Positions 1,226-9,120 of a stretch of DNA of 22,939 nucleotides are shown in pieces. Position 1 is the first letter of the stretch, and every line of letters starts with the position of its first letter. Made by a program: the position numbers and the translations under genes. Under the pieces are notes generated by a model. The model had not been told where the DNA came from and ran no database searches. It saw nothing but the letters and a program-made list of their open reading frames with translations. The DNA lies in IMG/VR virus record IMGVR_UViG_2671181100_000006, positions 1-22,939 of that record; one strand, 5' to 3'. The stretch comes from a virus (Duplodnaviria > Heunggongvirae > Uroviricota > Caudoviricetes).

Positions 1226-2539
1226 ATGAGCGGTGGGGTTGAGCTTAATATAGATGTCATGAAAGCACTAAGGTGGCTTGCAGAAACGACTACTGACCCT
1301 CAAGGATTTTCCGAGAGATTGGAAGTCGCTCAGGATAACTATATTAAAGAAACATCAAAGAAGGTGAATTTTGGTGCCCCGTTTGACAAAAGTTGGTATG
1401 GCGATGATGTTGTCGCTGGTTTTTTTTCGCAAGCGAAGTCTTTAATTGATAATCGACGAGCATTTGAAATATCTACCGCGTCACAAATCATTCCTTGGGT
1501 TAAACAATTAGGTCAAAACGTAAAGATTCTTAATGAAATATCAGGAGCTAAAGAGCGGGCTAAAAGAATGCTCGATAGCACCAGTGTTTATCCAGATACA
1601 GCATTGTTTGAATTAATACTTGCAGGGAATTATGCCTCAATGGGATATGAGGTTGAGTTTATTCCTGAACGAAAGGGAATTGCAAAAACCCCGGAATTTA
1701 AATGTAGTTATGATGGCGGAGTGGAGTTTTTTGTTGAATGTAAAAGACTCCAAAAAGGGTCATATGCAATCCAGGAAGAACATACACACTTAATCAGAGC
1801 CCATTTGGCAGAACTTCGAATCCATTCTAAAAGGATGAGTGTCTGGATGGATGTGACCTATAAAACTGAAGTTAAAGAGACTCCTGATAATTATCTTTTG
1901 AATCATTTAAGTAACTATTATGGGAAAGATTACTCCTGGGATGATGATTTTGGTGTTGGATTTGTAAAAGCAGTGAATTTAAATTCGGCAAAATATGATG
2001 TGGAAGTTAACGGTTCACTTTCGTTTCATAGTAAACTAGCGAGGTTACTGAAAGGTAATCCGATTGGTGATGATTTTTATAATATCTTTGCGTCTGGTAG
2101 GCCTGATGAGCGTGATCAACGGTTTATTTCAAAAATTAAATACGCATCTTTGTTGACATGGCGTTGTATTAATGAAAAATCTTTGGATTGTCGTTCTCGG
2201 CATATTAAAAGCACATTGGCTGAAATAGAAAAACAAATTTCTAATAATGGGCTTGGTGTTGGTCATGTTGCAATAGATGCTGATATTCAAAAGGATGTTG
2301 CAGATAAGCGGCGTGAGAAAAATCTTGAGGTTACGAAATCATTTAAGCTTGAGTCAAAGCTTGTACGGTTAAATATTCATTACCTTGTCCAACGTATAGA
2401 AGAAAGTCATTCTTGGATGGTTGATGAAACTCTTGACTATTTTTATACCGATAAGCTCATAGAGTATTTTATTCCAGCTGTTCAAATATTTCCTGATGCC
2501 GATGAATTTAACAACGACCTGCCAGGTTGGCATCAATGA
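1226..2539 (+). CDS. Hypothetical 437-aa protein; AT-rich cargo gene between int and xis; possible PD-(D/E)xK-like nuclease core (speculative)
   Basis: Long uninterrupted ORF with RBS GAGGAAATGAT before the ATG. Codon usage is conspicuously A/T-rich compared with the flanking integrase and early-operon genes. No family recognised by eye. Segment ...GYEVEF...CSYDGGVEFFVECKRL... has an E/D...D...ExK arrangement. Confidence 0.7.
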   Translation: MSGGVELNIDVMKALRWLAETTTDPQGFSERLEVAQDNYIKETSKKVNFGAPFDKSWYGDDVVAGFFSQAKSLIDNRRAFEISTASQIIPWVKQLGQNVKILNEISGAKERAKRMLDSTSVYPDTALFELILAGNYASMGYEVEFIPERKGIAKTPEFKCSYDGGVEFFVECKRLQKGSYAIQEEHTHLIRAHLAELRIHSKRMSVWMDVTYKTEVKETPDNYLLNHLSNYYGKDYSWDDDFGVGFVKAVNLNSAKYDVEVNGSLSFHSKLARLLKGNPIGDDFYNIFASGRPDERDQRFISKIKYASLLTWRCINEKSLDCRSRHIKSTLAEIEKQISNNGLGVGHVAIDADIQKDVADKRREKNLEVTKSFKLESKLVRLNIHYLVQRIEESHSWMVDETLDYFYTDKLIEYFIPAVQIFPDADEFNNDLPGWHQ

Positions 2540-3725: not shown

Positions 3726-4386
3726 TGCTGTTATCCTCACAGCAGTGGTGCCGCCCCTCTGGGTCAGTGGATACATGTCCACAGATATCGCACTCTATTT
3801 CATCCAGCACTACCGACGCTAGCTGCTCTTTGATGTGCAATCGCGGCTCACCATCTTTCGGCTCAGGCCACACCCGCGCCTTATTCACCGCTAGTTTTTC
3901 AATCATCGCCTTAGTGATTTGCTCGTCAGTGATACCGGCGCGGCGTTGGGCATCCCATAGCAGAAACTGCAAATCGGCCCACTCGCTGAGGTCGCCTGGT
4001 GCTGCTGCGGCTTCCAGCGCTTCTTTGCTTAAGTGTTTCAGTGGACCAATCGGGCCGACATTACCAAAGGTGGCCTGAGACCACGCGGTGTGCTCGCGGC
4101 GAACGTGCTCGCGGTCCGGCGCTGGCTGCGGTATGGCGTAGAGTTGCGCACCAAAGTCAGGAAGTTCGCCAGTGACCTGGACGAACTTTTGTTTACCTCC
4201 GTCAATTCCTAGCGGGTAGTAAGCTCTAATCTCTGCCACCGGCTCACTGTCCATTTCGGCCAGCGCGATGCGAGCCAGCTCCTCGGCCTCTTCAGCTGGC
4301 AGCATGACGTTGCTTCCGGCTCCGTAGGTTTCACGCCATGACTTAATTTTTTCCAGACGTTCTCTGGTTATGATTGATTGGGTCAT
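3718..4386 (-). CDS. MazG-like nucleotide pyrophosphohydrolase-type protein (DUF550 / dATP-dGTP pyrophosphohydrolase-like)
   Basis: 222 aa with AAGGAG RBS. C-terminal region (...SKEALEAAAAPGDLSEWADLQFLLWDAQRRAGITDEQITKAMIEKLAVNKARVWPEP...) resembles MazG-type all-alpha NTP pyrophosphohydrolase segments seen in prophage proteins. Assignment from memory, not a search. Confidence 0.5.
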   Translation of the reverse strand: MTQSIITRERLEKIKSWRETYGAGSNVMLPAEEAEELARIALAEMDSEPVAEIRAYYPLGIDGGKQKFVQVTGELPDFGAQLYAIPQPAPDREHVRREHTAWSQATFGNVGPIGPLKHLSKEALEAAAAPGDLSEWADLQFLLWDAQRRAGITDEQITKAMIEKLAVNKARVWPEPKDGEPRLHIKEQLASVVLDEIECDICGHVSTDPEGRHHCCEDNSND

Positions 4387-5456
4387 TAGCTGGACTCCTT
4401 ATCATTAGTTACAGATAAGTTTTTATTCACGATGGCATCCATCAATCGTGATGCAGCAGCCTTCTGGGCAGAGACATTGGCAATGACCGTTGGCCTGGAT
4501 TTCTCGCAGCTGGCGCAAATACCATCCCATGATGAAATGAGGAAGAAATCTTCACGATCGGCAATGCCGGTATTCATTACCAGGTCCTCAATCATCAGCG
4601 TGACCCCGCGAACTCCCCGGCCTTCACTTAACCTCTGTACTGCGTAGCCGAAGGCGTTAATCATCACAGCATGGAACTGGATGTACTCGCGTTTGTACTC
4701 AGCCTGATTCGTACCTCGGCGAATATCATCTAAACCAGTCAGCATCAGCCAAGCATTCCACAACCCCTCAAGATCATCCTGTGAGCAGGAATCTGAAAAT
4801 TTTGCCGTGGCATCACTAAGGGCTTTGAAGCTGACCCACTTATCACTTTTCGCAGGAACGACGTTATGCTCAAAATCGGTGACTTCAGAAAAGACGTCGT
4901 GTGAACTGATAAAACTGACCATCTCCTGCGCGTTCTTATCGCGCCCGTTATAGGCCATGTTGATAGCCGCAGATGGCTTCGAAACATTGTTGTTAATGTC
5001 GGAAAAGAACTGCTGCCGTGTTTTCAACGAGAGCTTATGTGTGAGCATTAGTGGTACGTGGATTGGTTCGCCAACTGTGCGGCAAAATTCGGCGATCCCC
5101 GCTGCACGGTGCTGGCCGTCGAAAAGCTTAATTTCTGCATCCATAGGGAAGCGCACAACACCAACGTTGGTATTGCCGAATTCCTGAAACTCAATCTCAG
5201 AGTTACAGTTACCGACCAGCGGTGGGATAATGAAGGGCTCTTTATTTTCGTGAGCATTAACCAGATATTCATAGAATTTCTTAGCACGCGCTGGGTTAAT
5301 TTCACGCTGAGAACGTTCTAAAGTATCTCCGTAATTATCACTGGCGAGGACGCGTGCCAAGGTTCGTGCTGGCACTGTCATCATAAGGACAATCGCTCCG
5401 CCCTGAACGCCGCGAGACGCAGGGAACTCAAAGAAATAATCTCCAACTATGCTCAT
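4386..5456 (-). CDS. DGQHR-domain protein (DndB-like, ParB/Srx superfamily)
   Basis: Contains the literal DGQHR motif (KLFDGQHRAAGI). Start placed at the ATG (MSIVGDYFF...) rather than the upstream GTG on the ORF track. Stop overlaps the start of the downstream gene by 1 nt. Confidence 0.7.
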   Translation of the reverse strand: MSIVGDYFFEFPASRGVQGGAIVLMMTVPARTLARVLASDNYGDTLERSQREINPARAKKFYEYLVNAHENKEPFIIPPLVGNCNSEIEFQEFGNTNVGVVRFPMDAEIKLFDGQHRAAGIAEFCRTVGEPIHVPLMLTHKLSLKTRQQFFSDINNNVSKPSAAINMAYNGRDKNAQEMVSFISSHDVFSEVTDFEHNVVPAKSDKWVSFKALSDATAKFSDSCSQDDLEGLWNAWLMLTGLDDIRRGTNQAEYKREYIQFHAVMINAFGYAVQRLSEGRGVRGVTLMIEDLVMNTGIADREDFFLISSWDGICASCEKSRPTVIANVSAQKAAASRLMDAIVNKNLSVTNDKESS

Positions 5457-5587
5457 GCTACCCACCACTCAATAAACATGCAGATACCAACGGTTACTAC
5501 GGCAATAAGCACCCAGCAGATCACATCGAACAAGGCGGCGAACCGACGTAGGGTGTATTTGCTATAATTCTCATGATCAATATTCAT
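5453..5587 (-). CDS. Small hydrophobic peptide (44 aa, predicted single transmembrane helix), not on the ORF track
   Basis: My own translation of the minus strand: MNIDHENYSKYTLRRFAALFDVICWVLIAVVTVGICMFIEWWVA. Its ATG overlaps the ParB-like stop (ATGA) and its TGA overlaps the DGQHR start (ATGA), suggesting translational coupling. Confidence 0.4.
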   Translation of the reverse strand: MNIDHENYSKYTLRRFAALFDVICWVLIAVVTVGICMFIEWWVA

Positions 5588-6369
5588 ACCGCCTCCCCAA
5601 TCACCCAACGAAGTGCGCTTGCATACTCACCCTCGGCTGATTCAAGGGCTTTGATGATTTCTTTGCGGGTTTTCAGGCGCGGCTTTGCCTCGCCGAGGAT
5701 CTGACGCTGACGCCGGGCTTTTTCATGGCCGGTTGTGCCAGCAGTTGCCGCTTCGATTTCAGAGACCTTCTCCCGCTGCTCTTCTGGTTTAAGCGATGCC
5801 AGCTGACGCGCCTGGGTAACGGTGACCGTTCCGGACTCCACTGCATCGCGAACAGCCTGGGTGGCATCCAGCAGAGACAGAGTTGCGCGTACGGTCTGGA
5901 CACTCACGCCAAACATCAGCGCTAAATCGTCCTCGTCGTGCCCGCGTTCCAGCGCATCAGCCATTTTCTTTGCTCGGCCCAGTGGCGTATCTGCCTGGCG
6001 GATTTCGTTAGCACTTACCATCGCCTGCGCCATGCGAACGGCGGAGCCACGTTTAGCGACTGCTGGAACCAGTAACGGTTCTTTGCCCTCTTTCGACAGA
6101 CGCTTGTTGGCTTCCAGTGTATGGCGCACACGCTGGCGACCATCGACTACACAAGACAGCCCTGTCTCCGGGTCTTTCCAGACGATAATCGGCTCAAGAA
6201 CGCCCTGGTCCATGATGTTCAGCACCATTGCCTCGCTGATAGGCAGGTGGATACGCTCATCGTAAAGCGGGTGCGTTTTGTCGGTAACCAGGTGCAGGTT
6301 TTCAGGTTCGAACGTCAAAACGTTCGTTTTGCCACTCGCGCCATATACCAGCTTTGAGTCTTTAGCCAT
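5584..6369 (-). CDS. ParB-like N-terminal domain protein (ParB/Srx nuclease-like fold plus helix-turn-helix)
   Basis: Motif ...GVLEPIIVWKDPETGLSCVVDGRQRVRHTLEA... matches the ParB box region (GERRxRAA-like). A downstream HTH-like segment (DLALMFGVSVQTVRATLSLL) follows. Confidence 0.7.
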   Translation of the reverse strand: MAKDSKLVYGASGKTNVLTFEPENLHLVTDKTHPLYDERIHLPISEAMVLNIMDQGVLEPIIVWKDPETGLSCVVDGRQRVRHTLEANKRLSKEGKEPLLVPAVAKRGSAVRMAQAMVSANEIRQADTPLGRAKKMADALERGHDEDDLALMFGVSVQTVRATLSLLDATQAVRDAVESGTVTVTQARQLASLKPEEQREKVSEIEAATAGTTGHEKARRQRQILGEAKPRLKTRKEIIKALESAEGEYASALRWVIGEAV

Positions 6370-6755: not shown

Positions 6756-7673
6756 TCAGGCTGCTGGTTTTTGTTCTTCGGGCTCTTTGTAGGCGAGCAG
6801 ATCACAAAGCTGGTTAATTACTTTACAGAACTGGAACATGTCCGTACCTGCCTGGTGACGCCAGCGGTAGGCTTTGTCGTCATCATCAGAATAATCATTA
6901 TCCTTGGTATCGATCCGCCGGAAATGGAACTTATCTGTAAGCAGAAAAGAGACGCCGCAGCCTCTTAATTCCATGTTATCGACGATAAAACCTGTGTTCA
7001 GGCTCTCCAGAATTTCACTGGTAACGGAAGTGTGTTCCGCAGAGTAGCGAATAACTTCTTTCTGTTCTGCCAGGCGGGATAGCTGGACATAATCACCGAC
7101 CTCAAACCCGGCAAAGGCTGATTCTTCGCCGTCCAGATGGTTTTTAAGGCGCGTTGTCAGGCCGTTTTTGATATCACTGATGTTGATCGTGACTGTTTTT
7201 ACTGAGCCAATCACTTTAACCAGCATCGCCCCGACTAAATTGGCAATATTTTTATTGGCGGAATTAATGATCAGCAGATTTTCTTCAGTGTTATACAGGA
7301 CCAGGATCAGAGACGACTTGATGAATGCCTGTTTGCAGAGCTGAACCTTAGCATCCTGGATAATGTTGTTACGGTCAGCGCGCTTCAATTTCTGACCACA
7401 CGCATTTTCGATGCGCTGGATACGCTCATTGGCTTCTTTCATTACGACGTGCTGGGGGATTATTTTCTCATCGCGGCGAACCACGATTGCATAACCGCCA
7501 GTAATTGGCGTAACCAGCTCGCCAGTAATCGGATTAGGGACGAAGGAAGCCCGCGCGAACTCCGTTTCTGTAAGTTCAGAGTAGGGCAATTCCTGCAGGT
7601 GCCCTTCAACCGCTTCAATGCTGGGCAAAGTAGCCCGATAGACAATGGCGTTACGTAACTTTGATATTTTCAT
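6756..7673 (-). CDS. rdgC: Recombination-associated protein RdgC homologue
   Basis: 305 aa, similar in length to E. coli RdgC (303 aa). N-terminus (MKISKLRNAIVYRATLP...) resembles the RdgC N-terminus (…FKNLMVYRL…). GAGGA RBS. Confidence 0.65.
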   Translation of the reverse strand: MKISKLRNAIVYRATLPSIEAVEGHLQELPYSELTETEFARASFVPNPITGELVTPITGGYAIVVRRDEKIIPQHVVMKEANERIQRIENACGQKLKRADRNNIIQDAKVQLCKQAFIKSSLILVLYNTEENLLIINSANKNIANLVGAMLVKVIGSVKTVTINISDIKNGLTTRLKNHLDGEESAFAGFEVGDYVQLSRLAEQKEVIRYSAEHTSVTSEILESLNTGFIVDNMELRGCGVSFLLTDKFHFRRIDTKDNDYSDDDDKAYRWRHQAGTDMFQFCKVINQLCDLLAYKEPEEQKPAA

Positions 7674-8333
7674 TTCTGTTTCCTCTGCAAAGGATTAGTT
7701 AGTTATCTCCACACAACGGAAAGAGCACTGAAGCACTGGAAACTCACTTGACTAACACAGTGCTTTTTCCTGTTGTGTGCCGGGCTTCCACCGGCTCCCA
7801 TCTGTTTTTAAAGCCACTCAGATATCGTCTGGGCTGTGCCGTCTACTTCCGGCTGTCACTGCCGTCGAGAGTGCTGGCAGCTCACTGACCTGATAACTCC
7901 CAGGATCAACTGGAGTGGTTGTTATCGCTACCAAAGCGCCACTGTCCAGGACATTTAAAAGGACCGTCTCCAAGTGGTAACTCTTCCAGTCCCGCTAAAC
8001 ACTCGTGTAAATGCTTAACGTGAATGGCTGATATCCTCGTCTCTTCCGAGGCGTCACACCTTTTCGCCGCGCTGGTGGGGCGCACGTCGTGCCTGAACAC
8101 TTAGCTTGCACATTCCGGTTGTTCTGAGAGGCATGGATAAAGGGACTCTCAGGCCGCTAACGCTGCATGTGCCATACAACGGTCATGAATATTGCCGTTC
8201 ACAACTGGAAGCGCACTCCTTCAGTTACAAACCGATCCCCACCGGAAAGAAGGGGAATGCGCTTCCATGTTGTGTTCTGTTCATCCTTGTCCGTAAGTTT
8301 CGTCATGTGCCGACGAGTAGAAGATAATCATAA

Positions 8334-8370
8334 ATTGCGAGTAACGCAATAGATGTGTGCGTAAAACGCA
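8334..8370. promoter_or_regulatory. Candidate left operator (OL) with two inverted-repeat sites, ATTGCGagtaaCGCAAT and TGCGtaaaaCGCA; probable pL region
   Basis: Palindromic GCG-N5-CGC sites read directly from the sequence, of the same type as three sites in the cI-cro intergenic region. Located just beyond the repressor-gene terminator, where a leftward early promoter is expected. Confidence 0.4.
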
Positions 8371-8380
8371 AATTTAGGGC

Positions 8381-8406
8381 GAAAAAAAAGGCCTCGAATG
8401 AGGCCT
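8381..8406 (-). terminator. Rho-independent terminator downstream of the repressor gene (minus strand)
   Basis: Hairpin AGGCCTC-gaat-GAGGCCT followed on the minus strand by an 8-nt U-tract (A8 on the plus strand at 8382-8389). Confidence 0.6.
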
Positions 8407-8424
8407 AGTTTATGATGATGAATG

Positions 8425-9120
8425 CTATCCATGCCGTTTAAAGGACTGAGACTGGCTTATTAAAACCTTTCCATAGATATAGAATCTGTGTTCATTCTCT
8501 TTAGTTATATTCCATTCTCTATAACGAGGGTTATCAGAGATGACTAGCAGTTGGTCTGGTATCATCTGCAGGCGTTTAACATAAACTTTTCCATCAAAAC
8601 CAAAGACGTAAATCCCATCCCCATCGAACTCATTGATAGTTACGTCCACAAAGATTAGGTCGCCAGGCTCAATCGTTGAGGCCATGCTATCACCGCGAAC
8701 GTTGATGACCTTTACTCCAGATGGAGTCCTGCCACCAAACATTGCCAATGCCTGATCATTGCTGAACTCGATAGCATGAATGACATCTATGACGTCACTA
8801 CCGTGTATATGTCCTGCCCCGGCGCTTGCGCTCACATCAAGTACCTCGACTCTGTATACATCCACATCCTTTACGGGAGATGCATATTTTTCACTGTTTA
8901 TATGTACAGTAGTATCATTTTCGTCAGAGGTAAATAGGTCAGGTACACTTACGCTTAAAGCTTGAGCAAGTCGGTTAAGTGTCTGTTCTGAAAACTGCTT
9001 TTGTTTACCAGTTTCAAGCCTGGAAATATTGGCAGCATCAACGCCCACAGCTTCTGCAAGCTCTGCGATTTTAATGTTCTTCGCTAAGCGAAGTTGTCGT
9101 ATGCGAGATCCTATTTTCAT
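8425..9120 (-). CDS. cI: CI-like prophage repressor (XRE-type HTH plus S24 LexA-like autopeptidase domain)
   Basis: N-terminal HTH (IRQLRLAKNIKIAELAEAVGVDAANISRLETG) and C-terminal S24 motifs (GDSM...VKRL). Divergent from cro across an operator-containing intergenic region. Confidence 0.85.
   Translation of the reverse strand: MKIGSRIRQLRLAKNIKIAELAEAVGVDAANISRLETGKQKQFSEQTLNRLAQALSVSVPDLFTSDENDTTVHINSEKYASPVKDVDVYRVEVLDVSASAGAGHIHGSDVIDVIHAIEFSNDQALAMFGGRTPSGVKVINVRGDSMASTIEPGDLIFVDVTINEFDGDGIYVFGFDGKVYVKRLQMIPDQLLVISDNPRYREWNITKENEHRFYIYGKVLISQSQSFKRHG

Follow-up and report, generated by a model that had tools for sequence, protein, structure and literature searches.

The question considered here is what occupies the long unannotated stretch at the head of the early-left operon in a prophage of Escherichia coli. 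The window, that is, the whole 22,939 nucleotides (nt) of the Caudoviricetes record IMGVR_UViG_2671181100_000006 in IMG/VR, is 100% identical to a prophage of E. coli WP2-S18-ESBL-08 situated at tRNA-Arg, beside dsdC. Its minus strand carries, in this order, a gene for a cI-like repressor, the terminator of that gene, operator palindromes with the candidate promoter pL, approximately 640 nt free of features, and rdgC. The untranslated stretch runs from candidate pL to rdgC (about 8314-7674, minus strand), and the Prokaryotic Genome Annotation Pipeline (PGAP) lists nothing between rdgC and the repressor gene. Since this gap is unannotated and has no conserved open reading frame (ORF), the leader of about 650 bp predicted earlier from the sequence between pL and rdgC is borne out. 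Three possible contents had been proposed for it: an antitermination RNA similar to put of phage HK022, a small RNA, or an unrecognised small gene. We find that the leader contains a conserved structured RNA, hereafter the core, flanked by two hairpins of a common family.

A conserved RNA fold in the early-left leader

According to blastn, a part of the gap is common to many otherwise unrelated temperate phages. To collect the family, IMG/VR was scanned with a pattern and the matches were filtered by motif, which left 73 full copies, 63 of them unique. Thirty-one non-redundant copies were aligned by MAFFT, which is blind to structure, the alignment was folded by RNAalifold, and a covariance model (CM), R2, was built from it. 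The core of the window is approximately 160 nt long and has five helices, all predicted by RNAalifold, and a pseudoknot:

8022-8180, minus strand: core structured RNA (CM R2, 129.5 bits, E 4e-39)
8180-8162, minus strand: helix P1
8156-8154 with 8118-8116, inner stem 8152-8146 with 8130-8124, minus strand: helix P2
8116-8106, minus strand: invariant joining segment GGAAUGUGCAA
8105-8103 with 8068-8066, minus strand: helix P3
8083-8080 with 8072-8069, minus strand: helix P4
8077-8074 with 8060-8057, minus strand: pseudoknot, CACC with GGUG
8051-8035, minus strand: helix P5, loop GAAGAGA

In the window R2 detects this single copy and nothing else above 3.7 bits, and in 100 further loci it detects 85 copies scoring 110-166 bits. 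The core is a genuine conserved RNA fold. In the alignment of the 85 homologues, fitted to R2, standard pairs fill 98.2% of the core cells, compared with 89.1% after column shuffling and only 29-45% when the partners are slid by 1-3 columns. Both sides have changed in 15 of 30 pairs, and the covariation score is 0.30 versus at most 0.073 in the slid controls. The same compensations are present in the structure-blind MAFFT alignment. The pseudoknot, in which CACC of the P4 loop faces GGUG, is otherwise invariant, with AACC/GGUU in three distinct sequences of the 85 and in the copy of E. coli UTI89.

About 60 positions of the core are invariant, many of them unpaired (UAUGGCACAUG, GGAAUGUGCAAG, CACCA, GGCG, GGUGUG, GAAGAG). 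A long-range pairing between GCACAU (8172-8167) and AUGUGC (8113-8108) is possible, and is beyond a covariation test because both sides are invariant. The P5 loop GAAGAGA resembles the purine loop of boxB. Some cores read GGCGGTACGGTG, an 11/12 match to the RfaH ops sequence GGCGGTAGnnTG; this candidate was rejected, as its positions 5-8 are variable in the family, with GGCGAAAAGGTG in the window, and it sits between P3 and the pseudoknot. An internal sigma-70 promoter was rejected as well: by inspection, the core has no convincing -10 box.

The expectation of an RNA element in this interval held: it is conserved, lies in sense to pL, is promoter-proximal and occupies the position of nutL or putL. 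How densely conserved and structured the interval is had not been recognised in the original prediction. An Rfam search had been suggested there as a check, and here no family matched. The whole window has no match to Rfam 15 at gathering score, the region 7500-8600 yields nothing relevant at E up to 10, and 13 related loci yield tRNAs only. We found no Rfam family, record annotation or openly accessible paper that describes the core as an RNA, and literature searches with conserved sequence strings returned nothing relevant; papers on the Pas small RNA and on neaT proved to be unrelated.

The remainder of the leader contains a second conserved segment, module 2, common to mEp390, PAT1 and six viral contigs, and a less conserved one:

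7921-8034, minus strand: module 2
8018-7995, minus strand: module 2 hairpin UUAAGCAU..GUGUUUAG (from the alignment)
7993-7937, minus strand: module 2 block GGGACUGGAAGAGUUACCACUUGGAGACGGUCC...GGACAGUGGCG (from the alignment)
7939-7926, minus strand: module 2 hairpin GCGCUUUGGUAGCG (from the alignment)
7780-7920, minus strand: less conserved segment with small purine-loop hairpins, GCCGGAAGUAGACGGC at 7853-7838 and GCCGGUGGAAGCCCGGC at 7795-7779

Module 2 is mostly invariant, only 4 of the 34 pairs predicted by RNAalifold being compensated, and the support for its structure is modest. Purine-loop hairpins recur at 7838-7853 and 7779-7795 of the window, in P5 of the core and in the leaders of loci L008 and L002 (GGAAGAGA, GGAAGUAGA, GGGAAAGA). 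Their loops resemble the boxB loops of lambda and are complementary to UCUUUCC/CUCUUC, which the boundary hairpins carry in their 3' strands. The folding energy of the whole leader does not differ significantly from that of shuffled sequences (z = -1.68). A role as a CsrA sponge was rejected, since GGA is only mildly enriched (19 observed, 13.3 +/- 3.0 expected).

Boundary hairpins and exchangeable cargo

The core and module 2 are enclosed by two long imperfect hairpins, recognised as inverted repeats:

8200-8274, minus strand: hp1, CACAAC-A-UGGAAGCGCAUUCC ... GGAGUGCGCUUCCA-GUUGUG, 20 pairs and one bulge (duplex -35.6 kcal/mol)
7710-7779, minus strand: hp2, CACACAAC-A-GGAAA-A-AGCACUG ... CAGUGCU-C-UUUCC-GUUGUGUG

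Both are more stable than shuffled sequences (z = -5.4 for hp1 and -3.5 for hp2), and 36 nt separate the 3' strand of hp2 from the AUG of rdgC. It is in hp2, a hairpin of about 20 bp, that the hexamers GCACTG and CAGTGC are found from which alternative pairing had been predicted. The hairpin itself stood, whereas its coordinates were off by one: on the plus strand GCACTG lies at 7725-7730 and 7733-7738, and CAGTGC at 7758-7763. The alternative pairing is real in the window, as the minimum free energy and centroid structures of hp2 use different CAGUGC copies, the second of which (7738-7733) is in the loop. This second copy has the look of a local duplication of 8 nt; a non-systematic reading of hairpin interiors in a few relatives did not reveal it. 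The number of hexamers in the window (12, with 12.9 expected) shows no enrichment, and the hairpin flagged earlier is one of two boundary hairpins rather than the element of main interest.

Together hp1 and hp2 fall into one family of 51 distinct hairpins of the form (C)ACAAC-N-NN-N-RAGMGCRYU ... RGUGCKCU-N-NN-GUUGUG(G), with some 20 pairs interrupted by a bulged A and a single mismatch, and with an interior whose length ranges from approximately 25 to 170 nt. The window contains no member outside this leader. Strands pair better with their own partners (-28.2 kcal/mol) than in cross pairs (-21.2 kcal/mol). The sense, that is, transcribed, strand is the more stable one in 41 of the 51 hairpins, through G-U pairs, which argues for selection at the RNA level. 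The structure matches that expected of an RNase III site, with an imperfect duplex of about 20-22 bp, a bulge or internal loop, and compensatory changes on the transcribed strand. The curated RefSeq record of epsilon15 labels the homologous hairpin 'RNaseIII, mRNA processing' (2720-2819).

The 3' strand of hp2 (7710-7730, minus strand) reads CAGUGCUCUUUCCGUUGUGUGG and carries UGCUCUUU with GUUGUGUGG behind it. The two resemble boxA (UGCUCUUUAACAA) and boxC (UGUGUGGG) of rrn, in this order, but are base-paired in the hairpin. Canonical boxA (CGCUCUUA or UGCUCUUUAACAA) occurs in just one locus of the family, L091.

A blastn match to part of the core is present in 1281 of 5426 complete E. coli genomes (about 24%), always unannotated, and the two genomes sampled with the CM, UTI89 and E2348/69, hold full-length cores. 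When one genome per species was searched, all matches came from genera of Enterobacterales, save one short contig of a metagenome-assembled genome. The core occurs in two settings, lambdoid phages and epsilon15-like podoviruses (Uetakevirus). In the lambdoid phages it is located downstream of the cI-like gene on the same strand, often starting 110-250 nt past the stop codon, and heads the early-left genes. In the epsilon15-like phages, a small island with the core at its head separates the portal gene from terL and is transcribed in opposition to the late genes. The promoter of this island, TTGACA-N17-TACCTT, overlaps the palindrome ATTACC-N5-GGTAAT, which is annotated as the repressor operator in epsilon15 and is also found in related islands. 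At least in the epsilon15 and lambdoid cases, the core fronts a repressor-controlled early unit. In epsilon15 itself (L165, NC_004775) the core is cut off after the 5' half of P2 (2646-2720, minus strand; R2 32 bits), and the promoter, operator, annotated RNase III hairpin, terminator and ORF p50 are kept.

The corresponding features of the window are as follows:

8425-9120, minus strand: cI-like repressor gene (PGAP)
8389-8406, minus strand: intrinsic terminator of the cI-like gene, AGGCCUCAUUCGAGGCCU then U8, just upstream of pL
8334-8371, minus strand: left operator (OL) palindromes overlapping pL, ATTGCGTTACTCGCAAT at 8350-8334 and TTGCGTTTTACGCA upstream of it
8321-8349, minus strand: candidate pL, assigned from homologous promoters, with -35 TTGCGT (8349-8344), a 17-nt spacer and -10 TATCTT (8326-8321)
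7671-7686, minus strand: ribosome-binding site AGAGGAA and AUG (7673-7671) of rdgC, as read from the sequence
6756-7673, minus strand: rdgC, first gene of the early-left operon (PGAP)

The TTGCG..CGCAA half-sites of the operator recur on the pR side, as read from the sequence. The layout TTGC(G/A)T-N17-TATCTT is common to loci L020 and L082, which have the same immunity type, and to UTI89. By comparison with the promoters of these relatives, transcription from pL probably starts near 8314. Further along the minus strand, the early-left operon contains adjoining genes for a DGQHR-domain protein and a ParB-like protein (4386-5468 and 5584-6369), and a 437-residue hypothetical protein is encoded beside the integrase (1226-2539, plus strand). 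The attachment site at tRNA-Arg next to dsdC (1-1167 of the window and, in the flanking record, L001, 1132-1206) corresponds to the KpLE1/CPS-53 attachment site of E. coli K-12.

Across the loci, what the family hairpins delimit downstream of the core is variable: the cargo may be tRNA-Arg, a tRNA-like unit, a toxin-like or other ORF, or one of the ordinary early genes. It is exactly at the hairpins that prophages sharing an immunity region diverge. In EC7, which lacks the core, module 2 and hp2, hp1 is fused at GUUGUG to the 5' untranslated region (UTR) of rdgC, whereas XJW9B277 and SCU-308 carry an ORF of 119 codons and another family hairpin in place of the core. Thus the core is an exchangeable accessory unit and not an obligatory one. 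The acidic 119-residue protein of these relatives (WP_023317569.1; L162, 1786-2145, minus strand; also in L160) has no match in Pfam or PHROGs. An ORF of the same length, 360 nt, is the first one past the leader in several loci of the family. One contig, L032, carries two cores on the same strand about 800 nt apart (3987-4151 and 4794-4956). In L075, L106 and L130 a gene for tRNA-Met(CAU) directly precedes the core (…CCACCAUAUUUGGUUGUAACACGG-core), and hence the core is not always the first element of the transcript.

The tRNA-like cargo, present in L020, L059, L007, L163 (5152-5345) and others and absent from the window, combines an acceptor-like stem (UGUGGUG ... CACCACA-N-CCA) and a trailing hairpin (AAUCACG..CGUGAU) with first and last hairpins that are conserved and a middle part that varies. 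The unit of L020 contains CGGACUUUUAAUCCG, which resembles the anticodon arm of tRNA-Lys(UUU). These units were rejected as tRNAs or transfer-messenger RNAs, as neither ARAGORN nor Rfam calls any of them; one is named 'pseudogenic tRNA-Gly' by PGAP in E2348/69. They could serve as decoys for anticodon nucleases.

A cargo unit of this kind has already been detected as an RNA. Sun et al. (2020) mapped a 193-nt small RNA, sRNA-17, in E. coli K1 RS218 by rapid amplification of cDNA ends and Northern blotting (PMC7719688). We placed the published primers and probe (PMC7719688) on the genome of the sister strain UTI89. sRNA-17 is a tRNA-like cargo cassette oriented as the core. Its 5' end follows CUCAG, at CGUUGUGG, and falls within a family hairpin, in the 3' strand; an intrinsic terminator marks its 3' end. 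The array in UTI89 and RS218 reads pL, core, hairpin, sRNA-17, terminator, hairpin, yfdP, and the UTI89 relative carries yfdP, yfdQ and yfdR past the leader. The 'promoter fragment' that the authors used for sRNA-17 is a member of the core family with a hairpin. Their amplicon for quantitative reverse transcription PCR starts at the 5' edge of the core, consistent with co-transcription of core and cargo. The resemblance to the window thus lies in a pL-proximal array of the same kind, with the 5' end in a boundary hairpin; the difference is that sRNA-17 is a cargo cassette and not the core, which was not recognised as an RNA in that paper (PMC7719688). Cargo similar to sRNA-17 occurs in 11 of the 73 family loci. 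A blastn search of the window with the UTI89 sequence gave chance matches only (E at least 0.15).

Possible roles of the core RNA

The reading that we prefer, with a probability of roughly 0.4, is that cleavage at RNase III-type hairpins frees the core from the pL leader as an accessory structured RNA. Upon derepression, pL would transcribe hp1, the core, module 2, hp2 and rdgC as one RNA. The two hairpins would act as RNase III-type punctuation, cut in the 3' strand near the internal bulge, by analogy with the early sites of T7, with the lambda N leader and with the 5' end mapped for sRNA-17. The product would be a structured RNA of about 200-460 nt, made up of the core alone or together with module 2 and protected by a hairpin retained at the 3' end; cleavage at hp2 would also generate the mature short 5' UTR of the rdgC mRNA. 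The core would be a moron-like non-coding RNA whose approximately 60 invariant nucleotides bind a conserved host component; the operon would not need it in cis, and it would not be a put RNA. The release and stability of this RNA, its action in trans and the identity of its target as a host component are what we infer. The reading is supported by the neighbouring-cassette sRNA-17, as it accumulates discretely with its 5' end in a hairpin and its 3' end at a terminator. It also draws on the covarying fold of the core, the sense-strand stability of the hairpins, the exchange of cassettes, the RNA genes that the hairpins delimit in other loci, and an early-left operon that offers no strong terminator to read through.

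Known systems offer partial parallels. Like the R-sites of T7 and the site in the lambda N leader, the hairpins are imperfect, bulged or mismatched stems of about 20 bp that separate units of one early transcript, and hp2 sits just upstream of the ribosome-binding site of the first gene, as in the N leader. Unlike those sites, they form a sequence family (CAAC...GAGC / GCUC...GUUGUG) and mark cassette junctions. DicF, CI RNA of P4 and C4 RNA of P1 are short base-pairing RNAs processed from repressor-controlled early or immunity transcripts of prophages. In the dicBF operon of the Qin prophage, a non-coding RNA is processed from a repressor-controlled transcript (PMC10448788). The core shares with these RNAs its place within a repressor-controlled prophage operon transcript, but it is large and tertiary-structured and Rfam reveals no homology. 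GOLLD and ROOL are structured RNAs of about 600-800 nt borne by prophages of other bacterial groups, often near tRNA genes. The core is likewise a structured prophage RNA often found beside tRNA genes, but GOLLD and ROOL are far larger, and none of the Rfam families matches the core.

Several observations weigh against an excised RNA acting in trans. RNase III cleavage of the boundary hairpins is suggested by analogy, by one database annotation and by one mapped 5' end, and the proposed action in trans comes with no named target. By predicted folding energy the core does no better than shuffled sequences (z = +0.88), so that, given its strong covariation, the support for the core is evolutionary rather than thermodynamic. 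In most loci the core is the first element after the promoter, and in L020, L082, L040 and L116 it begins at about +2 to +5 from the inferred start; this promoter-proximal bias fits a cis-acting element better than a free cargo RNA. Finally, in 34 of 61 unique loci the core is separated from the first co-oriented ORF by a strong intrinsic terminator. In epsilon15 its U-tract ends 3 nt before the ribosome-binding site of the ORF, and in related islands the ORF starts about 15-40 nt past the terminator. Such ORFs can be expressed only by read-through, which is the classic layout of antitermination.

One possibility, then, is that the core is an RNA-only processive antiterminator or anti-Rho element, unrelated to put, that replaces N and nut. 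It would fold on the nascent pL transcript and stay bound to RNA polymerase, and terminators in the early operon would be read through. We regard this as the strongest rival, although as rather unlikely. In its favour is the sense, promoter-proximal core in about 60 loci of two unrelated phage groups, which implies that it must work with host factors only. The operator at the island promoter of epsilon15 and the same palindrome in related islands make the units behind it look like early operons, and between the terminators and the ORFs the epsilon15-like islands leave no room for a promoter. Lambdoid phages of the BUCT708 type have the order pL, core, hairpin, terminator, early genes. The many invariant unpaired nucleotides of the core are also in keeping with it, as is the apparent absence of N: PGAP lists no N-like gene on the pL or the pR side, as had been predicted for both, and there is no arginine-rich N-like protein among the ORF translations of the early-left operon. 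A lambda-type N gene was rejected for the window, where the first gene of the pL operon is rdgC.

The position of the core is that of a put element: it is promoter-proximal and in sense, and it heads an early operon of a phage that lacks N. Like put of HK022, it heads the pL transcript and is often followed by terminators. Some of the related cores also start a few nucleotides from the transcription start, and putL begins within a few nucleotides of it (PMC9378689). As to sequence, structure and copy number, the proposal of a put-like element failed. A put model, R1, built from putL and putR of HK022 and the elements of HK639, phiEt88, CobraSix and S9-5, recovers its own six members at 54-95 bits; in the window it reaches no more than 5.6 bits (E about 7) and has no hit inside the leader, and five family loci score at most 7.2 bits. 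The structures differ too, the core having about 160 nt, five helices and a pseudoknot and put about 70 nt and two stem-loops. Elements of the put type follow both pL and pR, whereas the core is single, with no copy after pR, and near-identical prophages do without it.

Other observations also count against antitermination by the core. Neither the leader nor the early-left operon of the window has a strong intrinsic terminator. The leader is richer in G than in C (C/G below 1 in 13 of 15 windows along it) and hence is a poor substrate for Rho, so that there is little for an antiterminator to do here. In the epsilon15-like islands read-through would run antisense into terL. In RS218, transcripts end at the terminator past the core, and yfdP, just behind it, is silent in the wild-type lysogen (0.49 reads versus 47 in the deletion mutant); this argument is weak, as the promoter of sRNA-17 is not established (PMC7719688).

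It is also conceivable, although unlikely, that the leader is a purely cis-regulatory 5' UTR of rdgC or of the operon, acting through RNase III at hp2 or by riboswitch-like sensing, with no independent RNA product. The closeness of hp2 to the start of rdgC would suit this, the lambda N leader being a precedent for mRNA stability and translation set by RNase III. The core also looks riboswitch-like in its invariant joining nucleotides, its pseudoknot and its lack of excess stability. However, cargoes as unrelated as tRNA-Arg, tRNA-like RNAs, toxin-like ORFs, yfdP and rdgC follow the same core, and in EC7 rdgC carries hp1 only. A riboswitch with an adjacent terminator was rejected, as any terminators are 150-400 nt off, behind other RNAs, and thus provide no adjacent expression platform.

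That the hairpins are recombination sites at the DNA level, similar to integron attC or to linkers of modular exchange, their structure reflecting mobility, is very improbable. Cassettes are gained and lost exactly at GUUGUG, the ends CACAAC/GTTGTG resemble R''/R' of attC (RYYYAAC/GTTRRRY), and the interiors vary widely in length. However, with ACACAAC/GTTGTGT the ends are one position off the attC consensus on each side, and the more stable strand is mostly the top one, whereas attC folds from the bottom strand. The covariation inside the core would stay unexplained, homologous recombination between conserved hairpins suffices for the junctions, and apart from the phage integrase at the attachment site no recombinase is annotated.

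The idea that the gap encodes a small protein, N-like or other, hardly survives, as the only minus-strand ORFs within it (35, 38 and 64 codons, the 38-codon one being arginine-rich, ARRKGVTPRKRRG) match nothing in Pfam or PHROGs and are not conserved as frames across relatives, so that neither an N-like antiterminator nor the unrecognised small gene once suggested was found. No Shine-Dalgarno box precedes the 35-codon ORF, whose frame a 1-nt indel disrupts in EC7, a near-identical prophage. The two others overlie P3-P5 of the core and module 2; here the changes are compensatory base pairs and the indels are not multiples of three. An 80-codon ORF is annotated over module 2 in the mEp390 record. 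This ORF, mEp390_036 (L002, 2953-3195), and PhiV10p04 (L006, 2622-2873), which overlies hairpin and tRNA cargo, are probably spurious annotations.

Implications

Phage leader RNAs, RNase III punctuation and processed non-coding RNAs of prophages are known kinds, whereas the RNA family described here and its cassette organisation appear to be new. In genome pipelines the locus of the core shows up as a gap of about 700 bp or as spurious ORFs such as mEp390_036 and PhiV10p04, and one study took the core for promoter DNA.

A more far-reaching but doubtful reading would be that the core represents an undescribed class of phage RNA acting on a conserved host machine, either as a second RNA-only antiterminator or as a decoy or sponge together with the tRNA-like RNAs, within an integron-like array of cassettes delimited by hairpins. 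If it acts in trans, it would be a phage product that is common yet uncharacterised and is made as soon as induction or infection sets in. As a cis antiterminator, it would be only the second RNA-only class in phages, and would explain how terminators before early and moron genes are read through in lambdoid and epsilon15-like phages without N. The hairpin-bounded cassettes offer a concrete mechanism for mosaic exchange at the heads of early operons.

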